A stretch of 64,000 bases of DNA from an uncultured Eubacteriales bacterium (lineage in GTDB: Bacteria > Bacillota > Clostridia > Oscillospirales > CAG-272), in contig CAOKER010000004.1 of NCBI GenBank assembly GCA_948467545.1, positions 175,952 through 239,951 on the forward strand. Reading direction: 5' to 3'. A model generated the notes under the pieces. That model worked only from the letters and a program-made list of their open reading frames with translations. It did no database searches and was not told the DNA's origin. Position numbers and translations under genes: made by a program. Below, one piece after another: positions 10,010-32,944 of this stretch. Numbering within the stretch: position 1 is the first letter of the stretch; every line of letters begins with the position of its first letter.

Positions 10010-10057
10010 TTGTGGATTTCCTTCCAATTTCCGACTGCAGACTTTATGTGGTATTAA

Positions 10058-16661: not shown

Positions 16662-18464
16662 ATGGCTGAAAATCGTTATATAGGAGAATACCCCGTAATC
16701 GGAATACGTCCGATAATCGACGGACGCCGCGGACCTCTTAAGGTACGTGAGAGTCTTGAAGATCAAACAATGGCAATGGCGGTTGCCGCCAAAAAGCTTT
16801 TTGAGGAAAATCTTTGCTACTCAAACGGAGAACCGGTGAAGGTTGTTATCTCAAACACTTCTATCGGACGGGTGGCAGAAGCTGCCGCTTGTGAAGCTCA
16901 GTTTAAAAAGGAAGGCGTTTCTATAACCCTTTCCGTAACGCCGTGCTGGTGCTACGGTGCCGAGACTATGGACATGGATCCGAATACGATCAAAGGAGTT
17001 TGGGGCTTCAACGGAACAGAGCGTCCCGGAGCAGTATACCTTGCTTCTGTTCTTGCAACTCACGCTCAGAAAGGACTGCCCGCATTTGGTATTTACGGTC
17101 ACGATGTTCAGAATCTTGACGAGGTTACAAACATTCCGTGCGACGTAAAGGAAAAGCTTCTTCGCTTTGCACGCGCTGCTGTTGCCGTTGCAACAATGCG
17201 CGGAAAATCTTATCTGCAGATTGGCTCCGTCACAATGGGAATCGGCGGATCAATCATTGATACTGATTTCTTTGAAGACTATCTCGGCATGCGGGTAGAG
17301 TCTGTTGACGAGGTGGAAATAATCCGACGTATGTCAGAGGGCATCTACAACGAGGAAGAATATCAGAAAGCTTTGGCGTGGACAAAAGAACACTGCAAAG
17401 AGGGTTGGGATAAGAACCCGGATTTTGTAAAAGCGTCTGACGAAAAGAAAAAAGAGCAGTGGGAATTCACTGTTAAAATGTACTGCATTATAAAAGACCT
17501 CATGAACGGCAATCCGAAGCTCCCCGAAGGACGCGAAGAGGAAATGGTAGGACACAATGCCATTGCCGCCGGTTTTCAGGGACAGCGTCAGTGGACTGAT
17601 TTTTACCCTAACTGTGACTATCCGGAGGCTATTTTCAACTCATCGTTCGACTATACAGGAGCGCGTGAGCCGTATATTTTGGCTACCGAAAACGATACTT
17701 TGAACGGTGTCAGCATGCTATTCATGAAGCTGCTTACCAATCGCGCCCAAATATTCGCCGACGTCCGCACATATTGGTCTCCCGAAGCCTGCAAGCGTGC
17801 TTCCGGTTACGATGTTACAGGCGTCGCAAAGGAGAACGGCGGATTTATTCATCTTATAAATTCCGGTGCAGCCTGCCTTGACGCATGCGGAGAGTGTACC
17901 GATGAAAACGGAAACCCCATAATGAAAAAGTGGTGGGAAGTCACCGAACAGGATATTCAGAAAATGACGGCTGCAACATCGTGGTGTGCCGCGGATAACG
18001 GATATTTCAGGGGCGGCGGATTTTCGAGCCATTTTATCACCCGTGCCGAAATGCCTGCCACAATGATTCGCCTTAACCTTGTCAAGGGATTAGGGCCGGT
18101 ACTTCAGATTGCGGAGGGCTGGACAGTAAAGCTGCCGGACGAAGTTACGGATACCCTTATGAAGCGTACCGATCCGACATGGCCTTGCACTTGGTTCACG
18201 CCGCGCTGTGACGGAGTTGACGGCAGTCCTTTCAAATCCGCTTATGATGTGATGAACAACTGGGGTGCAAATCATGGCGCTATATCCTACGGTCATATCG
18301 GTGCGGACCTTATAACTCTCTGCTCAATGCTTCGCATACCTGTATGCATGCATAATGTACCTGAGAAAGATATTTTCCGTCCCGCTGCATGGAATGCTTT
18401 CGGTATGGACCGCGAAGGCCAGGATTTCCGCGCCTGCCAGAATTACGGTCCGATGTATAAATAA
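16662..18464 (+). CDS. fucI: L-fucose isomerase
   Basis: About 600 aa; N-terminus [36 protein letters not shown] and overall length are typical of FucI. AAAGGAAG lies 9 nt upstream of the ATG at 16662. Confidence 0.9.
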
Positions 18465-18529
18465 GCTTCGGCAAGAGCAAAAACTTTTACGGATTTAATT
18501 TTGAACTGACATTTTAATTTTACGCGCTA

Positions 18530-18570
18530 TGCCGTACTGACAAATTTTAATTGTCGGTACGGCATTTTTT
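18530..18570 (+). terminator. rho-independent terminator of fucI
   Basis: 13-bp stem tgccgtactgaca/tgtcggtacggca (one G-U) followed by tttttt. Confidence 0.85.
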
Positions 18571-18694: not shown

Positions 18695-18723
18695 TTGATA
18701 ATTCTCTTAAAATATGTTATAAT
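18695..18723 (+). promoter_or_regulatory. sigma-A type promoter upstream of the mdh-like gene
   Basis: TTGATA, then a 17-nt spacer, then TATAAT. It lies about 350 nt upstream of the start codon at 19073. Confidence 0.6.
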
Positions 18724-19072
18724 GTTCTCTGATATGAATAAGCGCCGTGTATAAAGCGGCTTTGAATCAAAGCACGGAAAAGGTACGGCGGAATTCATAT
18801 CTGCAGAAAATAACAGAGCATCTTTGGCAAAAAAATATATACCTGGGCCGCCTGCTCCATGTAGCTCTCTCCATGCGGCTTTCAATAATGCAGACTGAAA
18901 GCCTTAAACGGCAAAATGACCGCAGGAAACGGCGCTCACATCAAATTTCTATATTTTACAAATATGCACCGTATACTTCTGCAAATACGGCGCAGCCGAA
19001 AATACGGCCGATTTTACAGCATAATGCTTTATTTGAGTCCGGGAGCTTCGGCAGAAAGGAATGGTCGTAAAC

Positions 19073-20020
19073 ATGAACAAAATTACTATCATCGGAACCG
19101 GAAGCGTAGGAGCCACAATCGCATATACACTTGCGGTAAGGGGTATAGCCTCTGAGATCGTAATGGTCGATATCAACCATGAAAAATCGCTTGGAGAAGC
19201 CCTTGACATTAGGCAGGGAATACCTTTCTGCGATACACCGGTATCGATTTACGCCGGAAGCTACCGCGATGCTGTCGGCTCGGACATTGTAATCATCACT
19301 TCTGGAATCGCACGAAAACCGGGTCAGTCGAGAATCGATCTTGCGCAGACAAATGTAAATATAACAAAAAGCATAATACCGGAAATTACAAGATATGCCG
19401 GGGATGCTATGTATATAATTGTAAGCAATCCGGTTGATATTCTGACATATGTATTCTGCAAATGTTCGGGACTTGAGGAAAGACAGATTTTAGGTTCCGG
19501 AACAAGCCTTGACACAGCAAGACTGCGCTCAAGAATTTCGGAATATTACAACATAAATCAGAAAAATGTTCACGCATATGTTTTCGGCGAACACGGAGAC
19601 ACCTCTTTTGTTCCGTGGTCTCTCGCAAATATCTCGAATATTCCGGTTGACATGTATCAGGATGCGCTTGTTCAGAAGGACTGTATGGTTCCCTCCCTCA
19701 GCCACGAAGAGGTTGAGGTTTATATGAGAAAGTCCGGAGGAAGGGTCATCGCGCGCAAGGGAGCGACTTTCTATGCGATTTCAATTTCGGTATGCTATAT
19801 CTGCAAGTGTCTGCTTTCAAGCATAAACACCACAACGACAGTATCTACAATGATGCACGGCGAATACGGGATTGATGATGTTTGTCTCAGCACGCTGAAT
19901 ATCATCGGACACAGCGGAGTAGTAGGGAAGCTTCTCTCTCCTCTTAACGACGAGGAAACTTTGCTTCTCAGAAAGAGTGCAGACTGCCTTAAAGATGTAA
20001 TTAAAAATTTGGATATTTAA
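19073..20020 (+). CDS. mdh: LDH/MDH-family NAD-dependent 2-hydroxyacid dehydrogenase, predicted malate dehydrogenase
   Basis: IIGTGSVGATIAY Rossmann motif. The substrate loop SGIARKPGQSRIDL has Arg (codon 19313-19315) where lactate dehydrogenases carry Gln (..QKPGETRLDL). The family call is firm; malate specificity is inferred. Start at 19073 (MNKITIIG) or 19061. Confidence 0.8.
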   Translation: MNKITIIGTGSVGATIAYTLAVRGIASEIVMVDINHEKSLGEALDIRQGIPFCDTPVSIYAGSYRDAVGSDIVIITSGIARKPGQSRIDLAQTNVNITKSIIPEITRYAGDAMYIIVSNPVDILTYVFCKCSGLEERQILGSGTSLDTARLRSRISEYYNINQKNVHAYVFGEHGDTSFVPWSLANISNIPVDMYQDALVQKDCMVPSLSHEEVEVYMRKSGGRVIARKGATFYAISISVCYICKCLLSSINTTTTVSTMMHGEYGIDDVCLSTLNIIGHSGVVGKLLSPLNDEETLLLRKSADCLKDVIKNLDI

Positions 20021-20032
20021 ATCAAAGAAAAG

Positions 20033-20070
20033 AAGATTAATCAGTACAAGAAAAAGATTAAACAGTACAA
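20033..20070 (+). repeat. two phased 17-bp direct repeats (AAGATTAAnCAGTACAA), 21-bp period
   Basis: Copies at 20033-20049 and 20054-20070 are 16/17 identical and sit in the mdh-fumC intergenic region. Confidence 0.7.
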
Positions 20071-20189
20071 ATAAGAGCAGGGAAGACTGTTTAGACGAAG
20101 TTTGTGCAAAGCTCGTACAAAACTTGCGCTGTACTATTTGTTGTCCGAGAAAATATAGCAGAGAAACGACAGAAAGGAAAACAACTCAT

Positions 20190-21566
20190 ATGGGATATCG
20201 TATCGAACATGATTCTATGGGAGAAGTAAAGGTTCCTGAAGATAGATACTGGGCAGCTCAAACGGAACGAAGCCGCGGAAATTTTAAAATAGGTATCGGA
20301 ACAGAGACGATGCCGAGAGAAATTACTCATGCTTTCGGAATACTGAAAAAAGCTGCTGCAATTGCAAATGCGGCCATAAAGCCTGAGAGAATGACTGAAG
20401 AGAAACTGACTGCAATCAGCGCGGCGTGCGACGAAGTAATTTCCGGAAAGCTCAACGAGCACTTTCCGCTTGTTGTCTGGCAGACAGGATCAGGCACACA
20501 GTCGAACATGAATGCCAATGAAGTAATTGCCAACCGCGGAAATGAAATTGCCGGGAAAAAGCTTCTGCATCCGAACGACGATATAAACATGAGTCAGTCC
20601 TCTAACGATACATTTCCTACAGCTATGCATATTTCCGCTGTCATAGCAATCGAGGATAAGCTTTTTCCGGCTCTCGACATGCTTATAAATACATTTAAAC
20701 GGCTTGAATCCGAAAATGATGACGTTGTAAAAAGCGGACGTACTCATCTTCAGGATGCCACACCGATTAAATTTTCTCAGGAGATCAGCGGATGGCGTAG
20801 TTCTCTTGAACGTGACAGAGAGCTTCTCGAGCTTGCGCTTCCCAAGCTCCATGAGCTTGCGCTCGGAGGTACTGCCGTCGGTACCGGGCTGAATGCCCCG
20901 TCCGGATTTGACAGGAAGGTTGCTAAGGCTGTTTCGGAAATAACAGGAAAACATTTTGTAACAGCGCCGAACAAATTTCACGCGCTTACTTCAAAGGATG
21001 AGCTGGTTTTTGCGCACGGAGCTCTTAAAGCACTTGCCGCAGATCTGATGAAAATCGCAAACGATGTTCGCTGGCTCGCATCGGGCCCGCGCGACGGACT
21101 CGGAGAAATCAGAATTCCCGAAAACGAGCCCGGTTCTTCAATTATGCCCGGAAAGGTAAATCCGACACAGTGCGAGGCGGTAACAATGATTGCCGTGCAG
21201 GTAATGGGAAATGACGTCGCCGTAGGTATGGCTGCTTCCCAGGGAAACTTTGAGCTGAATGTGTTTATGCCGGTGTGTATATATAACTTTCTTCAATCTG
21301 TGAGACTCCTTGCTGAGGTTATTGTTTCATTTAACAATAACTGCGCGGTCGGAATAACCGCAAACCGCGAAAAGATGCATCATAATCTTCATAATTCTCT
21401 CATGCTTGTAACCGCGCTCAATCCGTATATAGGATATGAAAATGCCGCAAAAACAGCAAAAAAAGCTTATAAGGAAAATATCTCTTTAAAGCAGGCTTGC
21501 GTCGAGCTCGGTTTTCTTACCGAAGAAAAATTCGATGAGGTATTTCATCCTGAAAAGATGGTTTGA
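20190..21566 (+). CDS. fumC: class II fumarate hydratase
   Basis: MGYRIEHDSMGEVKVPEDRYWAAQTERS N-terminus and GSSIMPGKVNPTQCEA signature loop. AAAGGAAAA lies upstream of the ATG at 20190; the listed ORF start at 20124 is rejected. Confidence 0.95.
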   Translation: MGYRIEHDSMGEVKVPEDRYWAAQTERSRGNFKIGIGTETMPREITHAFGILKKAAAIANAAIKPERMTEEKLTAISAACDEVISGKLNEHFPLVVWQTGSGTQSNMNANEVIANRGNEIAGKKLLHPNDDINMSQSSNDTFPTAMHISAVIAIEDKLFPALDMLINTFKRLESENDDVVKSGRTHLQDATPIKFSQEISGWRSSLERDRELLELALPKLHELALGGTAVGTGLNAPSGFDRKVAKAVSEITGKHFVTAPNKFHALTSKDELVFAHGALKALAADLMKIANDVRWLASGPRDGLGEIRIPENEPGSSIMPGKVNPTQCEAVTMIAVQVMGNDVAVGMAASQGNFELNVFMPVCIYNFLQSVRLLAEVIVSFNNNCAVGITANREKMHHNLHNSLMLVTALNPYIGYENAAKTAKKAYKENISLKQACVELGFLTEEKFDEVFHPEKMV

Positions 21567-21772
21567 CTTATATATTTTTATATTTAAAAAAATCCGCATG
21601 AGATGTTCGGCAAAATATATCTGTAAAAGTGCAAGAGAGTTTTGATAAAAAACACTTAATAATTTTTTAATTCTGATTTTTACTCTTACAAAACGTACAC
21701 TCATGCTGTACTGAAGCTTCGTCGCGAAATATGGTTGACTTGCTTCGCGGCGGGAAGGAATGGTTATAGAAT

Positions 21773-22567
21773 ATGGTTTACAGTTATTATCCGGGCTGTA
21801 CTCTGAAAACAAAGGCCAAAGACCTTGACAGATATGCCCGTTTATGTGCGGAAAAGCTTGGCGCTCCGCTTTGTGAGCTTGAGGAATGGCAATGCTGCGG
21901 AGGTGCCTTTACTACTGCGTCGGATGAAGTTGCAACCAAGCTTGCTTCTGTTCGCGCATTAGCGGCGGCTAAAGAAAAAGGAGGCATTCTTGTCACAGTC
22001 TGTTCCGCATGTCATAACGTCCTGAAGCAGACGAACAAGGCAATTCGGGAAAATTCCGAATTTGCATCAAAGGTAACAAACTATATGAAGCCGGAAAATC
22101 CGTATTCCGGAGAAACACGTGTTATTCACTTTCTTGAGCTTCTGAGAGACGAAATAGGCTTTGACAAGCTTGCGGAAGCTGTTACGAATCCTCTTACAGG
22201 AAGAAAGATTGCAGCATATTACGGATGTCTTTTGCTGCGCCCGTCATCCGCACTTGCGATGGACGATCCGGAAAATCCGACAATCATCGAGGATTTTATA
22301 AAGGCCCTCGGCGCCGAGCCGGTTATATATCCCATGCGCAACGAATGCTGCGGCGGATATATAACGCTTGAGGATAAGGCTTCCGCCGAAAAGAAAAGCA
22401 GCGCGGTTGTACGCAGCTGCGAGGAGTTCGGAGCAGATACGGTAATTACGGCATGTCCGCTATGTCTTTACAATCTGAAAAAAAATTCCGGAGCAGATAT
22501 TCCGATAGTGTATTTTACCGAGCTGCTTGCGGAAGCTCTCGGTATTAAGGACGGAGGGAACACATAA
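21773..22567 (+). CDS. hdrB: heterodisulfide reductase subunit B-like protein (two CCG domains)
   Basis: Two copies of the C..CCG..C..C cysteine-rich motif: YYPGC...WQCCGG...CSACHN and YYGC...NECCGG...CPLCLYN. Confidence 0.85.
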   Translation: MVYSYYPGCTLKTKAKDLDRYARLCAEKLGAPLCELEEWQCCGGAFTTASDEVATKLASVRALAAAKEKGGILVTVCSACHNVLKQTNKAIRENSEFASKVTNYMKPENPYSGETRVIHFLELLRDEIGFDKLAEAVTNPLTGRKIAAYYGCLLLRPSSALAMDDPENPTIIEDFIKALGAEPVIYPMRNECCGGYITLEDKASAEKKSSAVVRSCEEFGADTVITACPLCLYNLKKNSGADIPIVYFTELLAEALGIKDGGNT

Positions 22568-22956
22568 TGAAGGATAATAAAAAGCTTAAAGAGCAGATAC
22601 TTCGCTCAAGCGGAGTGAACGTACTTAAATGTATGAGATGCGGTAAATGCTCTGCAACATGTCCTTCGTATGACGAGATGGAGTATCATCCTCATCAATT
22701 CGTAAACATGATTGATAACGGCGAAATTGAACCGCTTCTGAAATCAAAATCTATTTATAAATGTCTTACATGTTTTGCCTGTGTCGAACGGTGTCCGAGA
22801 AATGTAAAGCCGGCATACCTTGTCGAAGCGGTCAGGCTCGCGGTAATTCGTGAAAAGGGAGAAAATCATCTACATCCTGACGATATTCCGGAGCTGCTGG
22901 ACGAGGATCTGCCTCAGCAGGCAATTGTAACAGCGTTTCGCAAATACGCAAAATAA
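22567..22956 (+). CDS. hdrC: heterodisulfide reductase subunit C-like 4Fe-4S dicluster protein
   Basis: CMRCGKCSATCP and CLTCFACVERCP motifs. The ATG overlaps the hdrB stop (TAATG). Confidence 0.85.
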   Translation: MKDNKKLKEQILRSSGVNVLKCMRCGKCSATCPSYDEMEYHPHQFVNMIDNGEIEPLLKSKSIYKCLTCFACVERCPRNVKPAYLVEAVRLAVIREKGENHLHPDDIPELLDEDLPQQAIVTAFRKYAK

Positions 22957-22982
22957 CAGAGTTTTTAAGGAATGGTCGAAAT

Positions 22983-24974
22983 ATGCAGAAAATTGGTGTA
23001 TTTGTTTGTCACTGCGGTACAAATATCGCGGCTACGGTAGATGTACAAAAGGTTGCACAAACATTGAAAAACGAACCCGGCGTTGTATTTTCCACCGACT
23101 ATCAGTACATGTGTTCTGAGTCGGGGCAGGACATTATAAAGAATGCCATTGCCGAATATAAACTGACCGGTGTTGTAATATGTTCCTGCTCTCCGCGTAT
23201 GCATGAGGCGACTTTCCGCCGCGCGGCAGAGAAAGCGGGACTTAACCCCTATATGGTTGAGATCGCCAATATACGCGAGCAGTGCTCGTGGATACACAAG
23301 GAGATGCAGACCGCGACCGAAAAGGCTGTAATTCTCGGTCGTGCTGCAATAGCCAAGGTTCATCTCAATGCTCCTCTTACGGCAGGAGAAAGCCCTGTAA
23401 CTAAAAGAGCTCTTGTAATCGGAGGAGGTATTGCCGGAATACAGACCGCTCTCGATATAGCAGATGCGGGCTTTAACGTCGATATTGTTGAAAAGAAGCC
23501 GACAATCGGCGGCAAGATGGCACAGATAGATAAAACGTTCCCGACGCTCGACTGTGCGGCGTGTATTCTTACGCCTAAAATGGTCGATTGTGCGCAGAAT
23601 GACAAGATAAATATATACGCTTACAGCGAGGTTGAGGACATAAGCGGATTTGTCGGTAATTTTTCTGTAAAAATCAGAAAAAAGGCACGCTATGTCGATG
23701 AAACAAAGTGCACGGGCTGCGGACTGTGTACCGAAAAATGTCCTCAGAAAAATGTTCCGAATGAATTCAATCTCGGCTTTGACAATCGTCGCGCAATATA
23801 TATTCCGTTTGCACAGGCAGTACCGAAAAAAGCAACTATTGATCCCGATTACTGTACGATGCTTAAAACGGGAAAATGCGGTGTTTGTTCTAAGCTGTGT
23901 ACAGCCGGAGCAATCGACTACAAGCAAAAGGATCAGATTATAGAGGAAAAATACGGAGCAATTATTGTTGCGACAGGCTTCGAGCCCATAAAGGTCGATA
24001 AATACGACGAATTTGCGTATTCACAGAGCAAGGACGTTGTTACGTCACTGGAGCTTGAACGCCTGATGAATGCGGCAGGTCCGACAAAGGGAACGCTTCT
24101 CCGTCCCTCCGACGGTACGCATCCTCATACAATTGTATTTGTGCAGTGCGTCGGTTCAAGGTGCGAAGATGAAAAAGGAAAGCCATACTGTTCAAAGGTA
24201 TGCTGCATGTATACCGCAAAGCATGCAATGCTGATAAGGGAGAAATATCCCGATACTGAGGTATATGTATTTTATATTGACGTACGTACTCCCGGAAAGA
24301 ACTTTGATGAGTTTTACCGCCGTGCGGTCGAGCAATACGGCGTTCACTATATAAAGGGAATGGTCGGAAAGGTAATGCCGCGTGCAGACGGAAAGCTTGA
24401 GGTACGCGCATCCGATTTGCTTCTCGGCAAACAACTTCATATCGATGCCGATATGGTTGTTTTGGCAGTCGCAATCGAGCCTGACAAAACGGCAAGACCT
24501 CTCGCTACCATGCTTACCGCAAGCATGGACACTAATGATTTCTTTACCGAAGCTCATCCAAAGCTTCGTCCGGTGGAAAGTCCTACAGCCGGGATATTCC
24601 TTTCAGGTATGTGCCAAGGGCCGAAGGATATTCCCGAAACTGTTGCGCAGGCAAGCGCTGCTGCGGCAAAGGCGATCGGACTGCTTTGCAAAGATAAGCT
24701 TACCTGTAATCCTTGTGTGGCGCACTCCGATGAAATGATGTGCAACGGATGCTCATTGTGCGCAAATGTCTGCCCTTACGGTGCTATAACATATGTGGAT
24801 AAAGAATTCCGTATGCCGAACAGAACCACCGCGATACGCAGAGTATCATCCGTCAATCCCGCTGTTTGCCAGGGCTGCGGAGCATGTACAGTTGCATGTC
24901 CTTCCGGAGCAATGGATTTGTCGGGATTCTCAAACAGACAGATTATGTCGGAGGTTGACGCGATATGCAAGTGA
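22983..24974 (+). CDS. hdrA: heterodisulfide reductase subunit A-like FAD/poly-FeS flavoprotein
   Basis: N-terminal VFVCHCGTNIA, dinucleotide fold ALVIGGGIAGIQTALDIADAG, internal CTGCGLCTEKCP, and C-terminal CNGCSLCANVCP / CQGCGACTVACP ferredoxin domain. The 663-aa length is typical of HdrA. Confidence 0.9.
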   Translation: MQKIGVFVCHCGTNIAATVDVQKVAQTLKNEPGVVFSTDYQYMCSESGQDIIKNAIAEYKLTGVVICSCSPRMHEATFRRAAEKAGLNPYMVEIANIREQCSWIHKEMQTATEKAVILGRAAIAKVHLNAPLTAGESPVTKRALVIGGGIAGIQTALDIADAGFNVDIVEKKPTIGGKMAQIDKTFPTLDCAACILTPKMVDCAQNDKINIYAYSEVEDISGFVGNFSVKIRKKARYVDETKCTGCGLCTEKCPQKNVPNEFNLGFDNRRAIYIPFAQAVPKKATIDPDYCTMLKTGKCGVCSKLCTAGAIDYKQKDQIIEEKYGAIIVATGFEPIKVDKYDEFAYSQSKDVVTSLELERLMNAAGPTKGTLLRPSDGTHPHTIVFVQCVGSRCEDEKGKPYCSKVCCMYTAKHAMLIREKYPDTEVYVFYIDVRTPGKNFDEFYRRAVEQYGVHYIKGMVGKVMPRADGKLEVRASDLLLGKQLHIDADMVVLAVAIEPDKTARPLATMLTASMDTNDFFTEAHPKLRPVESPTAGIFLSGMCQGPKDIPETVAQASAAAAKAIGLLCKDKLTCNPCVAHSDEMMCNGCSLCANVCPYGAITYVDKEFRMPNRTTAIRRVSSVNPAVCQGCGACTVACPSGAMDLSGFSNRQIMSEVDAICK

Positions 24975-25429
24975 ATAATACGACTGAAAATATAACCGAA
25001 AATACAAGCTTTAAGCCCTTGATAGTTGCATTTTGCTGTAACTGGTGCTCATATGCAGGCGCGGACCTCGCCGGAACAAACCGTCTTACCTATCCGGCGG
25101 ACGTTAAAATAATCCGTGTTCCGTGTTCCTGCCGCGTAAATCCCATGTTTATTCTCAGAGCATTTCAGAGAGGAGCTGACGGCGTAATTCTCTGCGGATG
25201 TCATCCCGGAGACTGCCATTATACTACAGGAAATTACTATGCAAGACGAAGAATGACGCTTCTGTTTTCAATGCTTGACTATTTCGGCATAGAAAAGGAA
25301 AGAACACGCGTTGAGTGGGTATCGGCTGCCGAAGGCGCGAAATTCGCTGCGACGATGAACGATTTTGCGGAAACCGTAACCCGTCTCGGCAGAAATAAGA
25401 GACTGGAGGATCTGAGATGCAGGAAGTAA
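24965..25429 (+). CDS. mvhD: MvhD/FlxD-like (methyl-viologen-reducing hydrogenase delta subunit family) protein
   Basis: IVAFCCNWCSYAGADLAG...IRVPCSCRVNP...GADGVILCGCHPGDCHY is the MvhD/FlpD signature. It overlaps the hdrA 3' end by 10 nt. Confidence 0.9.
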   Translation: MQVNNTTENITENTSFKPLIVAFCCNWCSYAGADLAGTNRLTYPADVKIIRVPCSCRVNPMFILRAFQRGADGVILCGCHPGDCHYTTGNYYARRRMTLLFSMLDYFGIEKERTRVEWVSAAEGAKFAATMNDFAETVTRLGRNKRLEDLRCRK

Positions 25430-26388
25430 TGATAAAAAAAGCCGCAGAGCTTCTTGAAAACGGAACCGTAAACCGCGTAATGGGATGGAAAGCGGGCGAG
25501 TTTATCTACGATGTAACCCCTGCTGTTTTTGAGACCGCGGAAGAGCTGAAAGACTTTGTATACGGAGATTTCTGCGCTCCGAATCTTTCCAAATACATGG
25601 TAGCCGAGTCTAAAAAGGACGGCAAGATACTTGTTTTTCTCAAGCCGTGCGACACATACAGTTTTAACGAACTTCTATGTGAGCACCGTATAAATCGCGA
25701 CGGTGTATACGTAGTCGGAATACCGTGCGACGGTAAAACAGATATAGAAAAAATAAAGGCTCTTGCGGGACCGGGAATTATAGATATAAAGCGTGAGGGC
25801 GATAATCTCAAGGTTCAAACCGCATATGGATCAAGCGAGCTTTCACGAGATGACGTAAAGCTCGACAGATGTCTTGTCTGTAAGAGTCATAAGCACGTGG
25901 CATACGACGAGCTTATAGGAGAAGACGGAGAAATCCGTGAATCCAAACGGTTCGACGAGGTTGAAAGGCTTGAACATATGACGCCTGAGGAAAGATTTTC
26001 CTTCTGGCGCGGCGAGCTTTCAAAATGTATAAGATGCAACGCATGCCGTAATGTATGTCCGGCGTGTACCTGCGAAAAATGTGTTTTTGACAATCCTGCT
26101 TCCGGTGTTGAAAACAAAGCCGCATCGACAAGCTTCGAGGAGAATATGTTCCATATAATCCGAGCTTTCCATGTTGCGGGACGGTGTACCGACTGCGGCG
26201 AATGTTCCCGCGTATGTCCTCAGCATATACCGCTGCATTTGCTTAACCGTAAATTCATCAAGGATATAAACGAGCTGTACGGCGAGTATCAAGCAGGCGC
26301 AGATCCCGAAAGTCGCTCCCCGGTTGTTGACTTTACTAAAAACGATGCGGAACCGGGAATCATATACGAAAGGGGAGGTAACGAATGA
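25417..26388 (+). CDS. FlxC-type 4Fe-4S dicluster protein
   Basis: CIRCNACRNVCPACTC and CTDCGECSRVCP motifs. GGAGGA lies 6 nt upstream, and the gene overlaps the mvhD 3' end. Its position between the mvhD-like and FlxB-like genes mirrors flxD-C-B-A. Confidence 0.7.
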   Translation: MQEVMIKKAAELLENGTVNRVMGWKAGEFIYDVTPAVFETAEELKDFVYGDFCAPNLSKYMVAESKKDGKILVFLKPCDTYSFNELLCEHRINRDGVYVVGIPCDGKTDIEKIKALAGPGIIDIKREGDNLKVQTAYGSSELSRDDVKLDRCLVCKSHKHVAYDELIGEDGEIRESKRFDEVERLEHMTPEERFSFWRGELSKCIRCNACRNVCPACTCEKCVFDNPASGVENKAASTSFEENMFHIIRAFHVAGRCTDCGECSRVCPQHIPLHLLNRKFIKDINELYGEYQAGADPESRSPVVDFTKNDAEPGIIYERGGNE

Positions 26389-27425
26389 CGTATAAGCTTT
26401 TTCTTGACAAACTCTATGACTTTTTCGATAAAATTGCAGGGAAAGAGATTCTGTATATTCCGTCGGATGATTCTGACGGTTCGGCTCGTTTTAAAAAATA
26501 TGAGACCGGCGTTACTCTTTCCGAGTCCGGCAACACAGTTCGTTCTGCCAAGGATTTTTTCTTTCCTCAAACAGAAAGTCTTGTGGACTTTAAGGTAGAC
26601 GGACAAAAGATAGAGGTAATCGATCCGCGAACCGAAACCGAGGATTTCGTAATATTCGGCGTAAGATCATGCGATGCGCGAAGCTTTAAAATTCTTGATA
26701 AGGTGTTTATCGATCAGGAGCCTGCCGATTCTTACTATCTTAACAGGCGCAGTCACGGAACAGTGATTACACTTGCCTGTACTGCACCGGTGGAAACATG
26801 CTTCTGTAAAACCTTCGGTATTGATCCTACTGAATCTGCCGACGGAGACATTACCGCATGGAAAACTTCAAACGCTCTGATGCTGAAGGCTGTGAGCGAA
26901 AAGGGAAGAGCTTTGCTCGAATCACTCGGAGAGATAATCGATAAGGCGGACAGTGAAGATGAAAAAGCAGTCGAAGCTCAGAAAAAGCAGACAAATGTTA
27001 TTTATGACAAGCTTCCGCTTCATAATTTAAGTACAGAAAAATTTGACGGCAGAAGCATGATGGATACTTTTTTTTCCGAAAAGTGGAAAGAGCTTTCTGA
27101 GGCTTGCCTCGGATGCGGAACATGCACTTTTGTCTGCCCGACATGCCAGTGCTATGATATAAAGGAATTTGATACCGGTCACGGAATTAAGCGTTTCAGA
27201 TGTTGGGATTCCTGCATGTATTCCGATTTTACAAAAATGGCGGGAGGACAGCCGAGGCTTACACAGCTCGAACGTTTCCGTCAGCGTTTTATGCATAAGC
27301 TTATTTACTTTCCGATGAATAACGACGGTGAATACGGATGTGTCGGATGCGGAAGATGCCTTGCAAAATGTCCGATTCATATGAATATAGTAAAGGTTAT
27401 GAAATCAATAGGGGAGGACGAATAA
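26385..27425 (+). CDS. FlxB-type iron-sulfur protein (AsrA / sulfhydrogenase beta-like)
   Basis: LGCGTCTFVCPTCQCYDI and CVGCGRCLAKCP motifs. ATGA overlap with the upstream gene. Confidence 0.7.
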   Translation: MTYKLFLDKLYDFFDKIAGKEILYIPSDDSDGSARFKKYETGVTLSESGNTVRSAKDFFFPQTESLVDFKVDGQKIEVIDPRTETEDFVIFGVRSCDARSFKILDKVFIDQEPADSYYLNRRSHGTVITLACTAPVETCFCKTFGIDPTESADGDITAWKTSNALMLKAVSEKGRALLESLGEIIDKADSEDEKAVEAQKKQTNVIYDKLPLHNLSTEKFDGRSMMDTFFSEKWKELSEACLGCGTCTFVCPTCQCYDIKEFDTGHGIKRFRCWDSCMYSDFTKMAGGQPRLTQLERFRQRFMHKLIYFPMNNDGEYGCVGCGRCLAKCPIHMNIVKVMKSIGEDE

Positions 27426-28252
27426 TGACAGAAGAAATGCTCATTCCCAAAATCGGCGTTGTCACAGACATCAGACAGGACACTCCGGATGTTAAAACCT
27501 TTCGGGTACTTACCCCTGATGGGACAAAGCCTTTTGATCACATGCCGGGACAATGTGCAATGGTGTCAATTCCCGGCGTAGGTGAAGCTATGTTTTCAAT
27601 AACCTCATCTCCGACAAATACCGAATTTATGGAGTTCAGCATAAAGAAATGCGGATGTCTCACGGAATGGCTGCATATGATTGAGCCGGGACAGCAGATT
27701 ACCGTGCGCGGACCGTACGGCAACGCATTTCCGGTAGAAAGTGATCTTCTCGGAAAAGATCTTGTATTTATAGCGGGAGGAATCGGTCTTGCTCCGCTTC
27801 GCTCAGTAATCAATTACGTACGTGATAACAGAAGCAGGTACGGCTCGGTTCAGATTATTTACGGTTCGAGATCCAAGGACGACCTTGTTGATTATCAGGA
27901 AATAATCGACGAATGGATGACAGCTCCCGATTTTGAGGTAGATCTTACAATTGACCGTGAACAATCCGGATGGGACGGTCACGTCGGCTTTGTACCGAAT
28001 TATGTAAAAGAACTGTCTCCGGACGTTTCAAAAACGGTTCTTATGTGCGGCCCTCCGATTATGATAAAGTTTTCGCTCGCTGCGCTAAAGGAGCTTGGAT
28101 TTAAAGATACTCAGATATATACGACAATGGAGCTCCGCATGAAATGCGGAATCGGCAAGTGCGGACGCTGCAACATCGGAAATAAGTACGTATGTAAGGA
28201 CGGACCGGTATTCCGCTTTGACGAGCTCGGTGAGCTTCCGGATGAGTATTAA
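27425..28252 (+). CDS. FlxA-type FAD/NAD(P)H-binding oxidoreductase with C-terminal 2Fe-2S (AsrB/HydG/PyrK-like)
   Basis: FNR-like fold (FIAGGIGLAPLRSV) and C-terminal MKCGIGKCGRCNIGNKYVCKDGPVF cluster motif. TAATG overlap with the upstream gene and GGGGAGG RBS. The listed start at 27338 is rejected. Confidence 0.8.
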   Translation: MTEEMLIPKIGVVTDIRQDTPDVKTFRVLTPDGTKPFDHMPGQCAMVSIPGVGEAMFSITSSPTNTEFMEFSIKKCGCLTEWLHMIEPGQQITVRGPYGNAFPVESDLLGKDLVFIAGGIGLAPLRSVINYVRDNRSRYGSVQIIYGSRSKDDLVDYQEIIDEWMTAPDFEVDLTIDREQSGWDGHVGFVPNYVKELSPDVSKTVLMCGPPIMIKFSLAALKELGFKDTQIYTTMELRMKCGIGKCGRCNIGNKYVCKDGPVFRFDELGELPDEY

Positions 28253-28330
28253 TTAATACCGAAGAAATCAAAACCGATTTATTTGGTTTAGAATCCGTGA
28301 GAAAGGAATAAACCCTGCCGGGCGCAGGGG

Positions 28331-29017
28331 ATGGAAATCAATATGGAAAATATGGTTAATATCTATTTGTTCGGTAAGAAATATTCGGTACCGGCAAGTC
28401 TCACAATTATGACCGCAATGGAATATGCCGGATACCAGCTTAAACGCGGATGCGGATGCCGCAACGGTTTTTGCGGTGCATGCGCTACAATCTACAGAAT
28501 TAAGGGCAAACAGGAGCTTCAGGTATGTCTTGCATGTCAGACTCAGGTTGAGGAAGGTATGTATATTGCGACGCTTCCTTTCTTCCCGCTTGTCAAACAG
28601 ATTTATGATATTGAGAAAATTAAACCCACAGAGCAGATAATGATGCAGCTTTATCCGGAGATATATGCCTGCATAGGATGTAATGCCTGCACCAAAAGCT
28701 GTACACAGGGACTCAATGTTATGCAGTATATTGCTTATGCGCAGCGCGGAGAATATGAAAAGTGTGCAGAAGAATCCTTTGACTGTGTAATGTGTGGAGT
28801 ATGCTCGTCCCGCTGTCCTGCCGGAATCTCGCATCCGCAGGTTGCGATGCTTGCGCGCAGGCTAAACGGAAAATATCTTGCTCCGAAATGCGGACATCTT
28901 GAAAACCGTGTAAAGGAAATCAAGGACGGTAGCTTCGAGGAGCTCCTGCAAAATCTGATGCAAAAGCCAATCGAAGAGATGAAAGAGCTTTATAATAACA
29001 GAGAAATAGAGAAATAA
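28331..29017 (+). CDS. SdhB/FrdB-like iron-sulfur subunit (2Fe-2S plus 4Fe-4S motifs), no CCG domain
   Basis: GCGCRNGFCGACAT (2Fe-2S-like), CIGCNACTKSC and CVMCGVCSSRCP. Start is ambiguous among ATGs at 28331, 28343 and 28352. Confidence 0.75.
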   Translation: MEINMENMVNIYLFGKKYSVPASLTIMTAMEYAGYQLKRGCGCRNGFCGACATIYRIKGKQELQVCLACQTQVEEGMYIATLPFFPLVKQIYDIEKIKPTEQIMMQLYPEIYACIGCNACTKSCTQGLNVMQYIAYAQRGEYEKCAEESFDCVMCGVCSSRCPAGISHPQVAMLARRLNGKYLAPKCGHLENRVKEIKDGSFEELLQNLMQKPIEEMKELYNNREIEK

Positions 29018-29032
29018 GGGAGGGTAGAATCA

Positions 29033-30634
29033 ATGTACAACGAAGAGATGCTTGAATCAATTAAAAAAGTTGAAGCTAACCGAGCTGCCAATACCGCGCT
29101 TGAACCGAGAAGAATGACAGCCGATGAAAAGGACGCTCTCCTTTCAGAATATCATCCTGACTATAAAAAAGGCGAATTTGCAGAACTCAAAATCGGACCG
29201 AACAAGGGAGAAAAGGTTCCAAAGGAGCTTGCTGAGCTTCTTCAGGCAAACAGTCGTCTTAAGGATCATAAGCCGAATTTGGAGAATCCTGATTATGATG
29301 TTGACGTGCTTATAATCGGAGGAGGAGGAGCAGGTGCTTCCGCCGCAATTGAAGCAGACAATGCCGGTGCAAAGGTCATGGTCGTTACCAAGCTGCGAAT
29401 CGGAGATGCCAACACAATGATGGCAGAGGGTGGAATTCAAGCTGCCGATAAGGAAAACGATTCTCCTGCTCAGCATTATCTTGACGCTTTCGGCGGCGGT
29501 CACTTTGCAGCTAAGCCGGAACTGCTCCGTAAGCTTGTAAGTGAAGCTCCCGAAGCGATTGAATGGCTAAGCAATCTCGGCGTCGAATTCGATAAAATGC
29601 CCGACGGAACCATGATTACAACCCATGGCGGAGGAACTTCCAGAAAAAGAATGCATGCCGCGAAGGATTATTCAGGCGCTGAAATCATGAGAACACTTCG
29701 CGACGAAGTGCTTAACCGACAGATTCCTGTTGTTGATTTTACGGCGGCAGTCGAACTTATTCTCGATGAAACCGGACGGGCGTCCGGTGCAGTACTTCTG
29801 AATATGGAGACCGATGAACTCCTCGTTGCCAAAGCCAAAACAGTAATTATTGCTACGGGAGGCGCGGGAAGACTTCATTACCAGGGATTTCCTACTTCAA
29901 ATCACTATGGTGCGACTGCGGACGGACTTGTACTGTCTTACAGAGTCGGAGCAAAGCTTCTTTATGCGGATACACTTCAATATCATCCCACAGGCGCCGC
30001 TTACCCGGAACAGATTTTTGGAGCCCTTGTCACCGAAAAAGTGCGTTCGCTCGGCGCAAAGCTAATTAACTCCGACGGAGAAGTATTTATGCACCCGCTC
30101 GAAACACGCGATGTTTCGGCTGCATCCATTATTCGTGAATGCAGTGCAAGAGATAAGGGAATACACACCGCCTCAGGTGTGGGAGTCTGGCTCGATACTC
30201 CGATGATTGAGCTGAAAAACGGAGAAGGAACTATCGAAAGCAGAATTCCGGCGATGCTCCGTATGTTCGGAAAATACGGCATTGATATTAGACGCGAACC
30301 TATTCTTGTATATCCGACGCTGCATTATCAGAACGGTGGTATAGACATCTCAGACAACGGTGAATCCGGAGTTCAGAATCTTTTCGTTGCCGGAGAAGCA
30401 GTCGGAGGGATTCATGGCAGAAACCGTCTTATGGGTAACTCACTCCTTGATATTATAGTCTTCGGACGCAATGCGGGAAAACAGGCGGCAGCTCGTTCTA
30501 AGGATACGAAAACCGGAAAACTTACACTTGAGCATATTGACCGCTTTTCGGCAGAGATGACAGCTGCTAATATCAAGACAGATGTCGTTTCTCCCAAATT
30601 GCTTCCTAATTATGCCCGTAAAAGTTCTAAATGA
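29033..30634 (+). CDS. fumarate reductase/succinate dehydrogenase/L-aspartate oxidase family flavoprotein (FrdA-like) with ~88-aa N-terminal extension
   Basis: DVLIIGGGGAGASAA FAD fold, QYHPTG, HYQNGGI and RLMGNSLLD family blocks. GGGAGGG RBS lies 8 nt upstream. Confidence 0.85.
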   Translation: MYNEEMLESIKKVEANRAANTALEPRRMTADEKDALLSEYHPDYKKGEFAELKIGPNKGEKVPKELAELLQANSRLKDHKPNLENPDYDVDVLIIGGGGAGASAAIEADNAGAKVMVVTKLRIGDANTMMAEGGIQAADKENDSPAQHYLDAFGGGHFAAKPELLRKLVSEAPEAIEWLSNLGVEFDKMPDGTMITTHGGGTSRKRMHAAKDYSGAEIMRTLRDEVLNRQIPVVDFTAAVELILDETGRASGAVLLNMETDELLVAKAKTVIIATGGAGRLHYQGFPTSNHYGATADGLVLSYRVGAKLLYADTLQYHPTGAAYPEQIFGALVTEKVRSLGAKLINSDGEVFMHPLETRDVSAASIIRECSARDKGIHTASGVGVWLDTPMIELKNGEGTIESRIPAMLRMFGKYGIDIRREPILVYPTLHYQNGGIDISDNGESGVQNLFVAGEAVGGIHGRNRLMGNSLLDIIVFGRNAGKQAAARSKDTKTGKLTLEHIDRFSAEMTAANIKTDVVSPKLLPNYARKSSK

Positions 30635-30648
30635 TTGGAGTTGACTAA

Positions 30649-31884
30649 ATGTCTTTGTTCGGAGGAGTAATTCCTGTCACCGGAATTACATTTCTAATTT
30701 TCAGTGTATTTGCCATTTCTGCAATCGGATATGCTTTGGGACGCATAACAATAAAAGGTGTCTCTCTCGGTACAGCTGGCGTCTTTATTATAGCTCTTGT
30801 CTATGGATGCTTGTTCTACAAGCAGCTTGATGCACAGCTGGTTGATTATACAAAAAATGCGTTAAAGATTATAGAGAATATGGGACTGATTCTTTTTGTA
30901 ACATCTGTCGGATTTATAGCGGGACCGAAATTTTTCAGCAATATGAAGAAAAATTTCAAATCCTATGTTTGTCTCGGCCTTATAATCATAATTGCAGGAG
31001 GTCTCGCCGCAATCGGATGCATAATGTTCGGAAGAACAGTAGGAGGAGAAACGGATTTTGACAGACTTACGGCCATGATAGTAGGGCTTTTATCGGGTTC
31101 TCTCACCTCAACGCCGGCATTTTCGGCGGCAAAAGCTACCGTTGCGCCGGCATATGAGGACATAGTATCTGTCGGACACGGCATTGCGTATATCTTCGGA
31201 GTGATCGGAGTAGTGCTTTTTGTGCAGCTTATTCCTAAGCTTACTAAAGCAAATATGGAAGAAGAGCGCAGAAAGCTTATAATTGCGGACGACGGTTCGA
31301 GCAAAAAGAAAAAAGGCGCAAAAAAACTGATAGATATGGATCCATTCGGAATAATGGTTTTTGCATTGGCGGCTATTATAGGTATTTTTGTCGGAATGAT
31401 AAAAATTCCGCTTTCCTCAAATGGTCTTTCCGGAACTGCATTTTCGCTTACAACAACAGGTGGATGTCTTCTGATTTCTCTTTTATTCGGTCATTTTGGA
31501 AAATGCGGAAGAATAAACCTCATGCCTGAAGAATCTACTTTGAAAGTATTTAGAGAACTTGGACTTATGCTGTTCCTAATTGGTGCAGGAGTTGCCGGAG
31601 GCGCAAGCTTTATCGAAAACTTCCAGCCAATATACTTTATTTACGGCGTAGTAATGACGCTTGTTCCGATGATTATTGGCTATATATTTGCTAAATACGT
31701 TCTCAGGCTCAGTCTGCTTAATAATCTCGGCTCCATAACCGGAGGAATGACAAGTACTCCTGCGCTCGGTACACTTATCAGTGTTGCCGGTACAGAAAAT
31801 GTTGCGGCCGCATATGCAGCAACATATCCTGTAGCTTTAATATCGGTTGTGCTTTTGTCACAATTTTTGATATTGTTATTCTGA
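30649..31884 (+). CDS. AAE (aspartate:alanine exchanger / YidE-YbjL / SucE-like) family transporter, short form without TrkA-C domains
   Basis: Two homologous polytopic halves are joined by a short charged linker (EEERRKLIIADDGSSKKKKGAKK). N-terminal ...AIGYALGRITIKGVSLGTAGVF is typical of the family. Confidence 0.7.
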   Translation: MSLFGGVIPVTGITFLIFSVFAISAIGYALGRITIKGVSLGTAGVFIIALVYGCLFYKQLDAQLVDYTKNALKIIENMGLILFVTSVGFIAGPKFFSNMKKNFKSYVCLGLIIIIAGGLAAIGCIMFGRTVGGETDFDRLTAMIVGLLSGSLTSTPAFSAAKATVAPAYEDIVSVGHGIAYIFGVIGVVLFVQLIPKLTKANMEEERRKLIIADDGSSKKKKGAKKLIDMDPFGIMVFALAAIIGIFVGMIKIPLSSNGLSGTAFSLTTTGGCLLISLLFGHFGKCGRINLMPEESTLKVFRELGLMLFLIGAGVAGGASFIENFQPIYFIYGVVMTLVPMIIGYIFAKYVLRLSLLNNLGSITGGMTSTPALGTLISVAGTENVAAAYAATYPVALISVVLLSQFLILLF

Positions 31885-31895
31885 TAAAATAACTT

Positions 31896-31920
31896 CCTGT
31901 CTCATTTTATATGAGACAGG
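31896..31920 (+). terminator. hairpin after the transporter gene (weak terminator candidate)
   Basis: Perfect 10-bp stem cctgtctcat/atgagacagg with a 5-nt loop, but no clear downstream T-run on +. Confidence 0.4.
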
Positions 31921-32088
31921 AATATAATAGTGTATGACGGGAAGATAAATTACCTACCGTCTTACTTTAGTAAAAGGTATCGGCTTGTTTCATATCGATA
32001 TCGTCGTAAGAATATTACCGCCGGGCTTTTGCCCCTATTAAAACAATGCCGGGTTTCCGGGGGAAAGAAGGGAAATTATTACCGCATT

Positions 32089-32334
32089 ATGAAAGTTGTA
32101 GTATGCATAGGAAGCTCATGCCATCTCAAAGGTTCTCATCAGGTTGTAAGCTGTATTAAAAAACTTATTGAAAAGTATAATCTTGATGATCGTATAGAAC
32201 TTTCCGGTACTTTTTGTATGGGAAATTGTCAAAACGATGTTTGTGTCTCGGTTGACGGTGAAATTTTTTCCGTAGTTCCCGAAGAAACAACAAACTTTTT
32301 TGAAAATAACATTCTTAAAAAAGTATTAAATTGA
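32089..32334 (+). CDS. thioredoxin-like [2Fe-2S] ferredoxin domain protein
   Basis: MKVVVCIGSSCHLKGS...GTFCMGNCQNDVCVSVDG shows a four-Cys pattern. The listed start at 31930 is trimmed to the Met preceding the conserved domain. Confidence 0.6.
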   Translation: MKVVVCIGSSCHLKGSHQVVSCIKKLIEKYNLDDRIELSGTFCMGNCQNDVCVSVDGEIFSVVPEETTNFFENNILKKVLN

Positions 32335-32371: not shown

Positions 32372-32944
32372 TTGAATTTATCTGATAATCTTGGAGTTGC
32401 TTACGAAAACAAACGTCCGGAATGTTGTTCTGACGAAAGCTCTATAGTTAATATTATGGTTGGTCCTCCGTCAAATGATTGTGTTATTAATAGCATGATG
32501 TCAGAATTTTTTTCTTCTAAAGGCAAACATATAATTTGTGGGGGAACGACTGCAATATTAGCTTCAAGATATCTTGATACAGAGCTTATAGTAGACTTGA
32601 ATTACGTTGACTGTAAAATACCTCCGTCAGGGCAGATTGAAGGAGTTGATATTGTTACAGAAGGTGTAATTACGCTTGGAATGGTTCTTGAGCGTGCAAA
32701 ACTTTTTATAAACGGCAGCGATGTTCTTTTTCGATCCGAGCGTTATTCGGATTCTGTATCGAAAATTTGTCGAATGCTTTTTGACGAATCAAAAAAAATC
32801 AATTTTTTTATAGGCCAAGCAATCAACGAAGCGCATCAAGTACCCGGAAGTCCCATTAGCTTTGAATACAAGATGAATATTATTAAACAGCTAATAGATT
32901 ATCTTCGCAAAATGGAAAAGATAGTTACATCAAAATATTATTAA
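32372..32944 (+). CDS. hypothetical protein
   Basis: 190-aa ORF with a TTG start and no family recognised by eye. It follows the small ferredoxin gene on the same strand. Confidence 0.45.
   Translation: MNLSDNLGVAYENKRPECCSDESSIVNIMVGPPSNDCVINSMMSEFFSSKGKHIICGGTTAILASRYLDTELIVDLNYVDCKIPPSGQIEGVDIVTEGVITLGMVLERAKLFINGSDVLFRSERYSDSVSKICRMLFDESKKINFFIGQAINEAHQVPGSPISFEYKMNIIKQLIDYLRKMEKIVTSKYY

Follow-up and report, generated by a model that had tools for sequence, protein, structure and literature searches.

A window of 64,000 nucleotides from an uncultured Eubacteriales bacterium (GenBank assembly GCA_948467545.1, contig CAOKER010000004.1, positions 175,952 to 239,951; "the window" below means this whole stretch) contains a twelve-gene locus which seems to encode the conversion of oxaloacetate to succinate by the reductive C4 branch, with the last step attributed to a putative soluble, quinone-independent, electron-bifurcating multi-subunit enzyme; judged from sequence, we estimate the probability of this reading at roughly 0.55. 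The twelve open reading frames (ORFs) all lie on the + strand (19061/19073-31884), and every one of them has been assigned by profile search in Pfam and NCBIfam. Their order is mdh (malate dehydrogenase), fumC (fumarase), hdrB, hdrC, hdrA, mvhD/flxD, flxC, flxB, flxA, an frdB-like gene, an frdA-like gene and a gene for an AAE-family transporter. From hdrB onward adjacent genes overlap by 1, 10, 13, 4 and 1 nt or are separated by 26, 78, 15 and 14 nt. No gene for an anchor of the frdC/D type has been found in the cluster or across the whole 64-kb window, and the AAE transporter is the sole membrane protein encoded in the cluster.

In the proposed scheme the malate dehydrogenase and FumC would supply fumarate, and the AAE transporter would move the dicarboxylate. 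NAD(P)H would be oxidised at the FlxA-type subunit, which carries flavin adenine dinucleotide (FAD) and a [2Fe-2S] cluster, and the electrons would pass through the iron-sulfur (FeS) proteins FlxB and FlxC and the [2Fe-2S] protein MvhD/FlxD to the FAD of HdrA. Here the pair would be split: one electron would travel uphill through the ferredoxin-like domains of HdrA to ferredoxin, and the other would go downhill, first by way of HdrC and then of HdrB with its two non-cubane clusters, to the [4Fe-4S]/[4Fe-4S]/[2Fe-2S] chain of the FrdB-like protein, directly from FeS cluster to FeS cluster and with no thiol carrier, in a presumed association of HdrBC with FrdAB. From there it would arrive at the FrdA-like subunit, whose non-covalent FAD would reduce fumarate to succinate (net: 2 NAD(P)H + fumarate + Fd(ox) -> 2 NAD(P)+ + succinate + Fd(red)). 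That the nine proteins from HdrB to FrdA form one soluble complex, that HdrB hands electrons to the FrdB-like protein and not to a disulfide, and that fumarate is a new type of acceptor for bifurcation by HdrA are claims to which we would give even odds.

The potential of ferredoxin is about -450 mV, and the span between NADH and fumarate is as large as that available with the crotonyl-CoA/butyryl-CoA couple, which drives bifurcation by Bcd-Etf. With +33 mV for fumarate/succinate and -320 mV for NAD (PMC5861303), the potentials of NAD, fumarate and ferredoxin make the overall bifurcating reaction exergonic.

Subunits of the putative complex

The FrdA-like flavoprotein (29033-30634, + strand; 533 amino acids) comprises FAD and capping domains (FAD_binding_2, 2.8e-68) and aligns with the SdhA, FrdA and NadB proteins in the PDB at E values of 1e-49 to 1e-59. 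Its AlphaFold2 model, built on a diverse alignment, reached pLDDT 95 and pTM 0.93 (a shallow alignment of 31 sequences with at least 82% identity gave pLDDT 64), and the top Foldseek match of the model was E. coli FrdA (1kf6_A; E 8e-37, TM 0.72). The protein has the motifs QYHPTG, HYQNGGI and RLMGNSL, which do not vary in 81/81 relatives; nor do the fumarate-site residues H318, T320, E335, R338, R359, H431 and R465. Their equivalents in E. coli FrdA are H232/T234 (in QYHPTG), E245/R248 (in TEKVR), R287 (for R359, in LETRD), H355 and R390. Pairwise HMMER alignments had pointed to R368 as the proton-donor Arg, a candidate that was rejected when a broad alignment put this residue at R359 in LETRD.

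Several features set this protein apart from the flavoproteins of membrane-bound enzymes. His44 of E. coli FrdA, the site of the covalent 8-alpha-FAD linkage, aligns with N127, which is Asn in 80/81 relatives, and the FAD is predicted to be bound non-covalently. Asn in place of the FAD-linking His fits a reductase rather than a succinate dehydrogenase. The C-terminal helical domain Succ_DH_flav_C was not found in the protein by Pfam search. At its other end there is an extension of 85 amino acids (29033-29290), confidently modelled as helices and a small hairpin and carrying a motif (YHPDY...GPNKGE...P.EL..LL) common to the whole FrdA subfamily; it may serve, in place of the missing C-terminal domain, for binding the FeS subunit or HdrB.

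The highest-scoring NCBIfam model was that of TfrA, the flavoprotein of thiol:fumarate reductase (NF004900; 341 bits against a cut-off of 718, positions 6-419 of 546), and the SdhA/FrdA models gave 273 bits. Three known identities have been tried and rejected. For NadB, L-aspartate oxidase, the score on TIGR00551 was 271 bits against a cut-off of 453, and a gene for an FeS partner adjoins in all relatives whose contig reaches that far. Canonical quinol:fumarate reductase (QFR) was discarded for want of an anchor, of the covalent-FAD His and of the [3Fe-4S] motif, and TfrAB because the TfrA score stays below the cut-off and the FeS subunit is not fused to CCG domains.

The partner of the flavoprotein, the FrdB-like FeS subunit (28331-29017, alternative start 28343, + strand; Fer2_4 and Fer4_7/9), has a plant-type [2Fe-2S] motif and, after it, two CxxCxxCxxxC motifs, arranged as in SdhB/FrdB. 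Cys 41, 43, 48, 51, 69, 114-124 and 152-162 are kept in 78/78 sequences and Cys 66 in 77/78. Since both ferredoxin motifs have their complete set of four Cys (78/78), a second [4Fe-4S] cluster is predicted to replace the quinone-proximal [3Fe-4S] cluster, a replacement also described for TfrB and type E enzymes. The similarity to SdhB/FrdB proteins in the PDB is weak (E ~1e-4), the match to the TfrB model is a weak N-terminal one (3.9e-9, positions 18-148 only), and no CCG domain was found in this protein with Pfam or NCBIfam, HdrB being the only CCG protein. The label FrdB-like, given in the initial annotation of this DNA, rests on architecture. The features of the two proteins together describe a putative soluble, reductase-type, quinone-independent fumarate reductase module.

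The Hdr proteins have counterparts in methanogens. HdrB (21773-22567, + strand) has two Pfam CCG domains, with two non-cubane [4Fe-4S] clusters predicted; all ten CCG cysteines are kept in 55/55 sequences, and the protein aligns over its full length with methanogen HdrB (8rvv_B, E 1.8e-39). In NCBIfam it scored 150 bits on the HdrB model and 143 bits on the SdhE model. SdhE is the CCG-type partner of methylmenaquinol:fumarate reductase and offers, by analogy, a precedent for the docking of a CCG protein on the FeS subunit of a fumarate reductase. HdrC (22567-22956, + strand), the start of which overlaps the hdrB stop, matches Fer4_8/17 and HdrC models as a relay of 2x[4Fe-4S] and keeps its eight Cys in 55/55 sequences. 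HdrA (22983-24974, + strand; 818 bits on the HdrA2 model) is assigned FAD and about six [4Fe-4S] clusters. It aligns with the bifurcating HdrA of Methanothermococcus (5odc_A; E 2.4e-215, residues 3-660 on 5-648) and has about 29 invariant Cys, including four CxxCxxCxxxC motifs; it is presumed to be the bifurcating flavoprotein of the module.

The remaining four genes encode the Flx part. The gene of the MvhD/FlxD [2Fe-2S] adaptor (24965-25429, + strand; Pfam FlpD, 1.1e-55) shares 10 nt with hdrA, and its product aligns with the MvhD portion at the C-terminus of HdrA2. The FlxC-type poly-FeS protein (25417-26388, + strand) belongs to the Fer4 dicluster families and keeps 15 Cys in 66/66 sequences, and the FlxB-type FeS protein (26385-27425, + strand; Fer4_22, 1.9e-30) matches ShyB/HydB/AsrA models and is homologous to the beta subunit of Pyrococcus sulfhydrogenase I (9nez_B, 2.8e-39). 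The NAD(P)H:FAD/[2Fe-2S] entry subunit of FlxA type (27425-28252, + strand, the start being that of the public gene call) combines FAD_binding_6, NAD_binding_1 and DHODB_Fe-S_bind and is homologous to the gamma subunit of the same enzyme (9nez_C, 1.5e-57).

Upstream of the core, mdh (19061/19073-20020, + strand; Pfam Ldh_1_N/C) encodes a member of the lactate dehydrogenase (LDH) family, an NAD-dependent malate dehydrogenase predicted to convert oxaloacetate to malate. The malate-type Arg, R85 (GIARKPGQSR; 102 in LDH numbering), is the same in 47/47 orthologues. Because the NCBIfam models favour L-LDH, whose models gave the top scores for the 19073-20020 dehydrogenase and passed their cut-offs, the assignment rests on this Arg and on context, and misnaming by automatic annotation is likely. 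In two relatives (L007 and L031) the position of mdh is taken by another LDH-family gene, 37% identical. The class II fumarate hydratase FumC (20187-21566, + strand; Pfam Lyase_1 and FumaraseC_C) scored 716 bits on TIGR00979 (cut-off 665). The AAE-family transporter at the other end of the locus (30649-31884, + strand; Pfam Asp-Al_Ex, PF06826, in two stretches, 7.3e-58; YidE/YbjL duplication domain) has 411 amino acids against model lengths of 553-562, is devoid of the central TrkA_C domains of long members of the family, and is presumed to serve succinate export or C4-dicarboxylate exchange.

The gene map thus agrees with the initial annotation, which had placed twelve same-strand genes where the ORF listing has them and had described gaps of 0-80 nt or overlaps from hdrB onward (overlaps of 1-13 nt and gaps of 14-78 nt were found). 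Its gene identifications proved correct, with CCG, FlpD, FAD_binding_2 and Asp-Al_Ex all recovered in the family searches. The absence of an anchor gene, the three flavoprotein motifs and the malate-type Arg, all pointed out in it, are borne out as well, and the fumarate-binding residues on which its proposal hinged are invariant in 81/81 relatives.

Conservation of the operon and its relation to described systems

A scan of one genome per species yielded at least 80 distinct loci (a further count from the scan, 587, refers to pattern matches and not to species). Nearly all of the loci listed come from gut metagenome-assembled genomes (MAGs) of Oscillospiraceae, Ruminococcaceae, Acutalibacteraceae and unclassified Clostridia, and among them FrdA is 76-83% identical to that of the window. 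Counting only loci with enough DNA, the order of the nine-gene core hdrBCA-mvhD-flxCBA-frdBA is kept in 54/54 species-level genomes, and no gene is ever inserted into it; fumC lies upstream of the core in 46/48 loci, mdh in 44/48, and the AAE transporter gene directly downstream in 40/64. Four loci (L014, L029, L033 and L038) have a gene for GTP-dependent phosphoenolpyruvate carboxykinase (PEPCK) directly after frdA, replacing the transporter, and a gene for a Rex-type NADH/NAD sensor flanks the cluster in 19/80 loci. Near-perfect Rex operators (pattern TTGTKAANNNNTTMACAA, at most 1 mismatch) were also found in the 1.3 Mb of loci, 8/11 of them just upstream of mdh or fumC; the relatives with such an operator upstream of the operon are six (L007, L018, L031, L060, L070 and L079). 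The Rex and PEPCK neighbours fit a predicted NADH-consuming pathway from phosphoenolpyruvate to succinate. Some of the relatives are named "L-aspartate oxidase" in database entries. Among cultured carriers, Solibaculum mannosilyticum, [Clostridium] leptum and Anaerotruncus have proteins with 83% identity.

Outside this group an exhaustive representative search found about ten full-length 50%-identity clusters of the FrdA subfamily with the N-terminal extension. One metagenomic locus (L086, 811-9771) has the order korDABC-hdrA-mvhD-hdrC-hdrB-frdB-frdA, where kor stands for a four-subunit 2-oxoacid:ferredoxin oxidoreductase; its FrdA, with the same N-terminal extension, is 56% and its HdrA 47% identical to the proteins of the window, and HdrB again adjoins FrdB in a different gene order. 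At L083-L085 (9366-12891 in locus coordinates) a 48%-identical FrdA lies between a 212-aa FrdB-like protein and a 418-aa NuoF-like one (Complex1_51K, SLBB and NADH_4Fe-4S) in proteobacterial-looking surroundings (cytochrome c, UbiA), and this trio is a candidate three-subunit soluble NADH:fumarate reductase. Another relative (L087, 5250-7433, P0123) is a natural FrdB-FrdA fusion of 727 amino acids, the FrdA part of which is 57% identical; no hdr genes were found in the 5 kb upstream of it, and the contig ends just downstream. Other distant FrdA relatives have no obvious partner nearby. Judged by these contexts, FrdAB has the look of a portable module that can be joined to one soluble donor or another, and at least two very different lineages have acquired or retained the link to Hdr.

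The bifurcation hypothesis is reasonable because of the colinear core, the invariant fumarate-site residues and the replacement of both the FAD-linking His and the [3Fe-4S] motif. The proposal of the initial annotation that fumarate is the acceptor of the Hdr-Flx module gains comparative backing from the synteny of frdAB with hdr-flx (54/54), the adjacency of hdrB, frdB and frdA in a distant lineage, the invariant active-site residues and the PEPCK and Rex neighbours.

Parts of the system resemble several known enzymes. All seven subunit types of FlxABCD-HdrABC of Desulfovibrio vulgaris, reportedly described by Ramos et al. in 2015, are present here by cofactor motifs and family models; in the window the order is reversed (hdrBCA-flxDCBA), two extra fumarate reductase subunits are part of the operon, and the proposed acceptor is fumarate and not a protein disulfide (DsrC), no DsrC-like gene being present in the locus. 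The thiol:fumarate reductase TfrAB of Methanothermobacter is likewise soluble and quinone-independent, with [2Fe-2S] and two [4Fe-4S] motifs and with CCG-type clusters involved. In TfrB the FeS-subunit and CCG modules are naturally fused, whereas in the window CCG belongs to a protein of its own, HdrB; ~130 residues at the C-terminal end of the TfrA model have no counterpart in the FrdA-like protein, and coenzyme M (CoM) and coenzyme B (CoB) are not expected in the host. Membrane-bound QFR (E. coli FrdABCD, Wolinella FrdCAB) shares the flavoprotein fold, the active site and the reaction, but has the anchor, the covalent-FAD His, the [3Fe-4S] motif and the C-terminal flavoprotein domain that are missing here. 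HdrA, HdrB, HdrC and MvhD are full-length homologues of the corresponding proteins of methanogen HdrABC-MvhAGD, with the differences that a NAD(P)H module takes the place of the hydrogenase as donor, and a fumarate reductase pair that of CoM-S-S-CoB as acceptor.

The closest described system is the "succinate operon" of P. thermosuccinogenes (Pseudoclostridium; CDQ83_RS03365 to RS03315), presented in BMC Microbiology in 2020 with reference to a 2019 preprint by Koendjbiharie and van Kranenburg as encoding a putative bifurcating Flx-Hdr-coupled fumarate reductase (PMC7282089). It shares with the window its gene order (fumC, seven Flx/Hdr genes, two frd genes and a putative transporter) and the mechanistic hypothesis. 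FrdA is encoded by 1602 nt in both, FrdB by 675 nt, HdrB by 783 vs 795 nt and FumC by 1365 vs 1380 nt (the latter value for the window), and the five middle genes take up 5.35 kb in P. thermosuccinogenes vs 5.27 kb in the window; the likeness of the two operons is thus drawn from the published description, gene order and gene lengths. The window differs in the addition of mdh upstream and in the 411-aa AAE transporter downstream, where P. thermosuccinogenes has a 249-nt ORF, and the host is, unlike P. thermosuccinogenes, an uncultured mesophilic gut Clostridia MAG. The genes of the P. thermosuccinogenes operon have been found to be very highly expressed and co-regulated ~4-fold (PMC7282089). 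A CRISPRi tool is available for this organism (PMC9044749).

A bifurcating complex of tfrAB and flxABCD-hdrABC products has also been proposed for the reductive tricarboxylic acid (rTCA) clusters of tubeworm symbionts (Rubin-Blum et al. 2019; Mitchell et al. 2024; PMC6315080; PMC11636981). There, and in Thioflavicoccus mobilis, an anchor-less two-subunit fumarate reductase lies beside Hdr/Flx, and electron flow from NADH to fumarate and ferredoxin is proposed; the setting is different, namely an autotrophic rTCA cycle with 2-oxoglutarate:ferredoxin oxidoreductase genes inside the cluster and another gene order. The kor-containing locus L086 resembles these clusters in layout. A 2026 survey still calls the bifurcating Hdr-Flx fumarate reductase "suggested".

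The locus is therefore a genuine, well-preserved member of an operon type that has been described and is biochemically uncharacterised. The remark in the initial annotation that no characterised enzyme of such composition was known still holds, but the operon and the hypothesis, the novelty of which it implied, had already been published (PMC7282089), and so had an equivalent proposal (PMC6315080, PMC11636981). The comparisons made here add four points. Gut Oscillospirales very commonly have the operon, and they conserve it rigidly; one subfamily of distinctive architecture takes in both the clostridial FrdA and that of the kor-hdr-frd locus L086; Rex and PEPCK genes are recurrent neighbours; and the same FrdAB module is elsewhere paired with a NuoF-like subunit.

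Alternatives to bifurcation to fumarate and ferredoxin

An enzyme that does not bifurcate, in which Flx and Hdr form only an electron wire and a soluble NAD(P)H:fumarate oxidoreductase reduces no ferredoxin, is in our estimation unlikely. The pairing of a 48%-identical FrdAB with a single NuoF-like NADH module suggests plain NADH:fumarate reduction in the family, and Hydrogenobacter thermophilus has a five-subunit soluble NADH-dependent fumarate reductase (Miura 2008, as related in a passage of the 2026 survey). Such a wire would hardly call for the complete HdrA, whose cluster-binding cysteines are all maintained in 56/56 sequences and which aligns end to end with an HdrA structurally proven to bifurcate; seven extra genes for the job of one NuoF-like subunit would be unparsimonious, and organisms with little energy to spare would throw away ~350 mV.

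In a second explanation, also improbable, there are two enzymes linked by a diffusible thiol/disulfide carrier: Flx-Hdr would reduce the disulfide, as has been proposed for DsrC in Desulfovibrio, and FrdAB would act as a thiol:fumarate reductase like TfrAB. The papers on P. thermosuccinogenes draw the electrons "to ferredoxin (and thiols)" (PMC7282089). TfrA is the nearest hidden Markov model (HMM) of the flavoprotein, and HdrB retains the ten CCG cysteines of the disulfide-reducing site, but the FrdB-like protein has no CCG domain, and FrdAB therefore has no thiol-oxidising site. Neither a DsrC-like gene nor any other carrier gene is conserved in the cluster, and synthesis of CoM or CoB is not known from bacteria of this group.

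The flavoprotein might also act on another substrate (L-aspartate, mesaconate or another enoate), or the complex might run oxidatively, as a confurcating enzyme; both ideas we regard as quite improbable. L-aspartate oxidase has the same catalytic residues and its model scores almost as high as SdhA/FrdA (271 vs 273 bits), the name occurs among database entries, and AAE transporters include aspartate:alanine exchangers. Yet the best HMM is TfrA, every NadB model stays below its cut-off and E. coli FrdA is the best structure match; an FeS partner gene, which NadB does not have, always adjoins, and fumC and mdh are neighbours, as is PEPCK in some species. As for the reverse direction, oxidation of succinate with NAD is strongly endergonic.

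Mere co-location, with Flx-Hdr serving an unrelated acceptor and FrdAB fed by another donor such as reduced ferredoxin, is very improbable: the flxA-frdB gap is the longest in the core (78 nt) and holds a small GC hairpin, and FrdAB relatives without Hdr exist, but the core is colinear in 54/54 genomes with nothing inserted, the hdrB-frdB-frdA adjacency recurs in a distant lineage with another gene order, and the whole set is co-regulated in P. thermosuccinogenes (PMC7282089).

Several points weigh against bifurcation from NAD(P)H to fumarate and ferredoxin itself. With partners that are NuoF-like, fused or absent in its relatives, the FrdAB pair does not need Hdr. The known role of the CCG clusters of HdrB is catalytic, in the reduction of disulfides, and not that of a simple relay. 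The FlxAB homologues of P. furiosus use NADPH, so that the donor may be either NADH or NADPH. No conserved ferredoxin, Rnf or hydrogenase gene was found in the cluster when the operon relatives were compared, and no Rex operator near the operon in the 64-kb window even with up to 3 mismatches allowed. A canonical QFR or menaquinone synthesis may be encoded outside the visible 64 kb. The full-text literature up to 2026 yielded no purification, assay or structure of such an enzyme and no enzymology for any member of the operon type.

Borders of the unit and significance for gut clostridia

On its left side the locus is bordered by a terminator-like hairpin (18529-18565, + strand; a 15-bp stem, 7 of its pairs GC, and then a T-run), which closes the upstream unit with a fucose isomerase gene (16653-18464). 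The best sigma-70-like promoter match before mdh (18695-18723, + strand; TTGATA-17-TATAAT with TG, 11/12 matches) is a consensus match only. Between it and the mdh start lies a leader of ~340 nt (18730-19072), the folding of which is marginally above that of shuffled sequences (z = -2.0); no riboswitch was matched with Rfam in this leader or in the fumC-hdrB gap. Directly after the transporter gene a 12-bp palindromic hairpin (31894-31922) is a possible right border of the unit, but termination of the + transcript there is uncertain because a T-run is present on the minus-strand side only.

Downstream follow a gene for a small thioredoxin-like [2Fe-2S] ferredoxin (32089-32334) and a 190-aa ORF with no family match (32372-32944). 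Both were considered as operon partners and rejected, neither being kept beside the operon in relatives. Elsewhere in the window a polyphosphate kinase 1 gene is paired with one for a Ppx/GppA phosphatase (7922-11101), and in the related locus L010 the operon has a PPK2 gene downstream. The dockerin gene mentioned in the initial annotation is real (11853-13349; Dockerin_1, 2.5e-10). A gene of LarA type (lactate racemase family; 37101-38510, minus strand) stands beside acyltransferase and ABC/FtsX exporter genes, and two ORFs, of 429 amino acids (5836-7125, minus strand) and 184 amino acids (147-701), had no Pfam match.

The locus itself presents no new idea; what the comparison brings out is that behind the published case of P. 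thermosuccinogenes stands a family that is large and tightly conserved. If the complex bifurcates, clostridial fumarate reduction would conserve energy without quinones or cytochromes, by way of reduced ferredoxin for Rnf or hydrogenases, which would supply a missing piece in the bioenergetics of gut and rumen Firmicutes that form succinate and would add a new class of acceptor for bifurcating enzymes of the HdrABC type. The same FrdAB module would then be plugged into different donors across phyla, namely Hdr-Flx, Hdr with Kor, and a NuoF-like subunit. The matter also bears on bio-succinate production and on how efficiently the reductive TCA cycle runs in symbionts. Since at least 80 species-level genomes, from gut Oscillospirales and their relatives, carry the operon, it would, if the proposal is true, be a major means by which quinone-free gut Firmicutes form succinate, dispose of NADH and conserve energy through ferredoxin, and the redox and ATP balances of very common gut bacteria would have to be rewritten.

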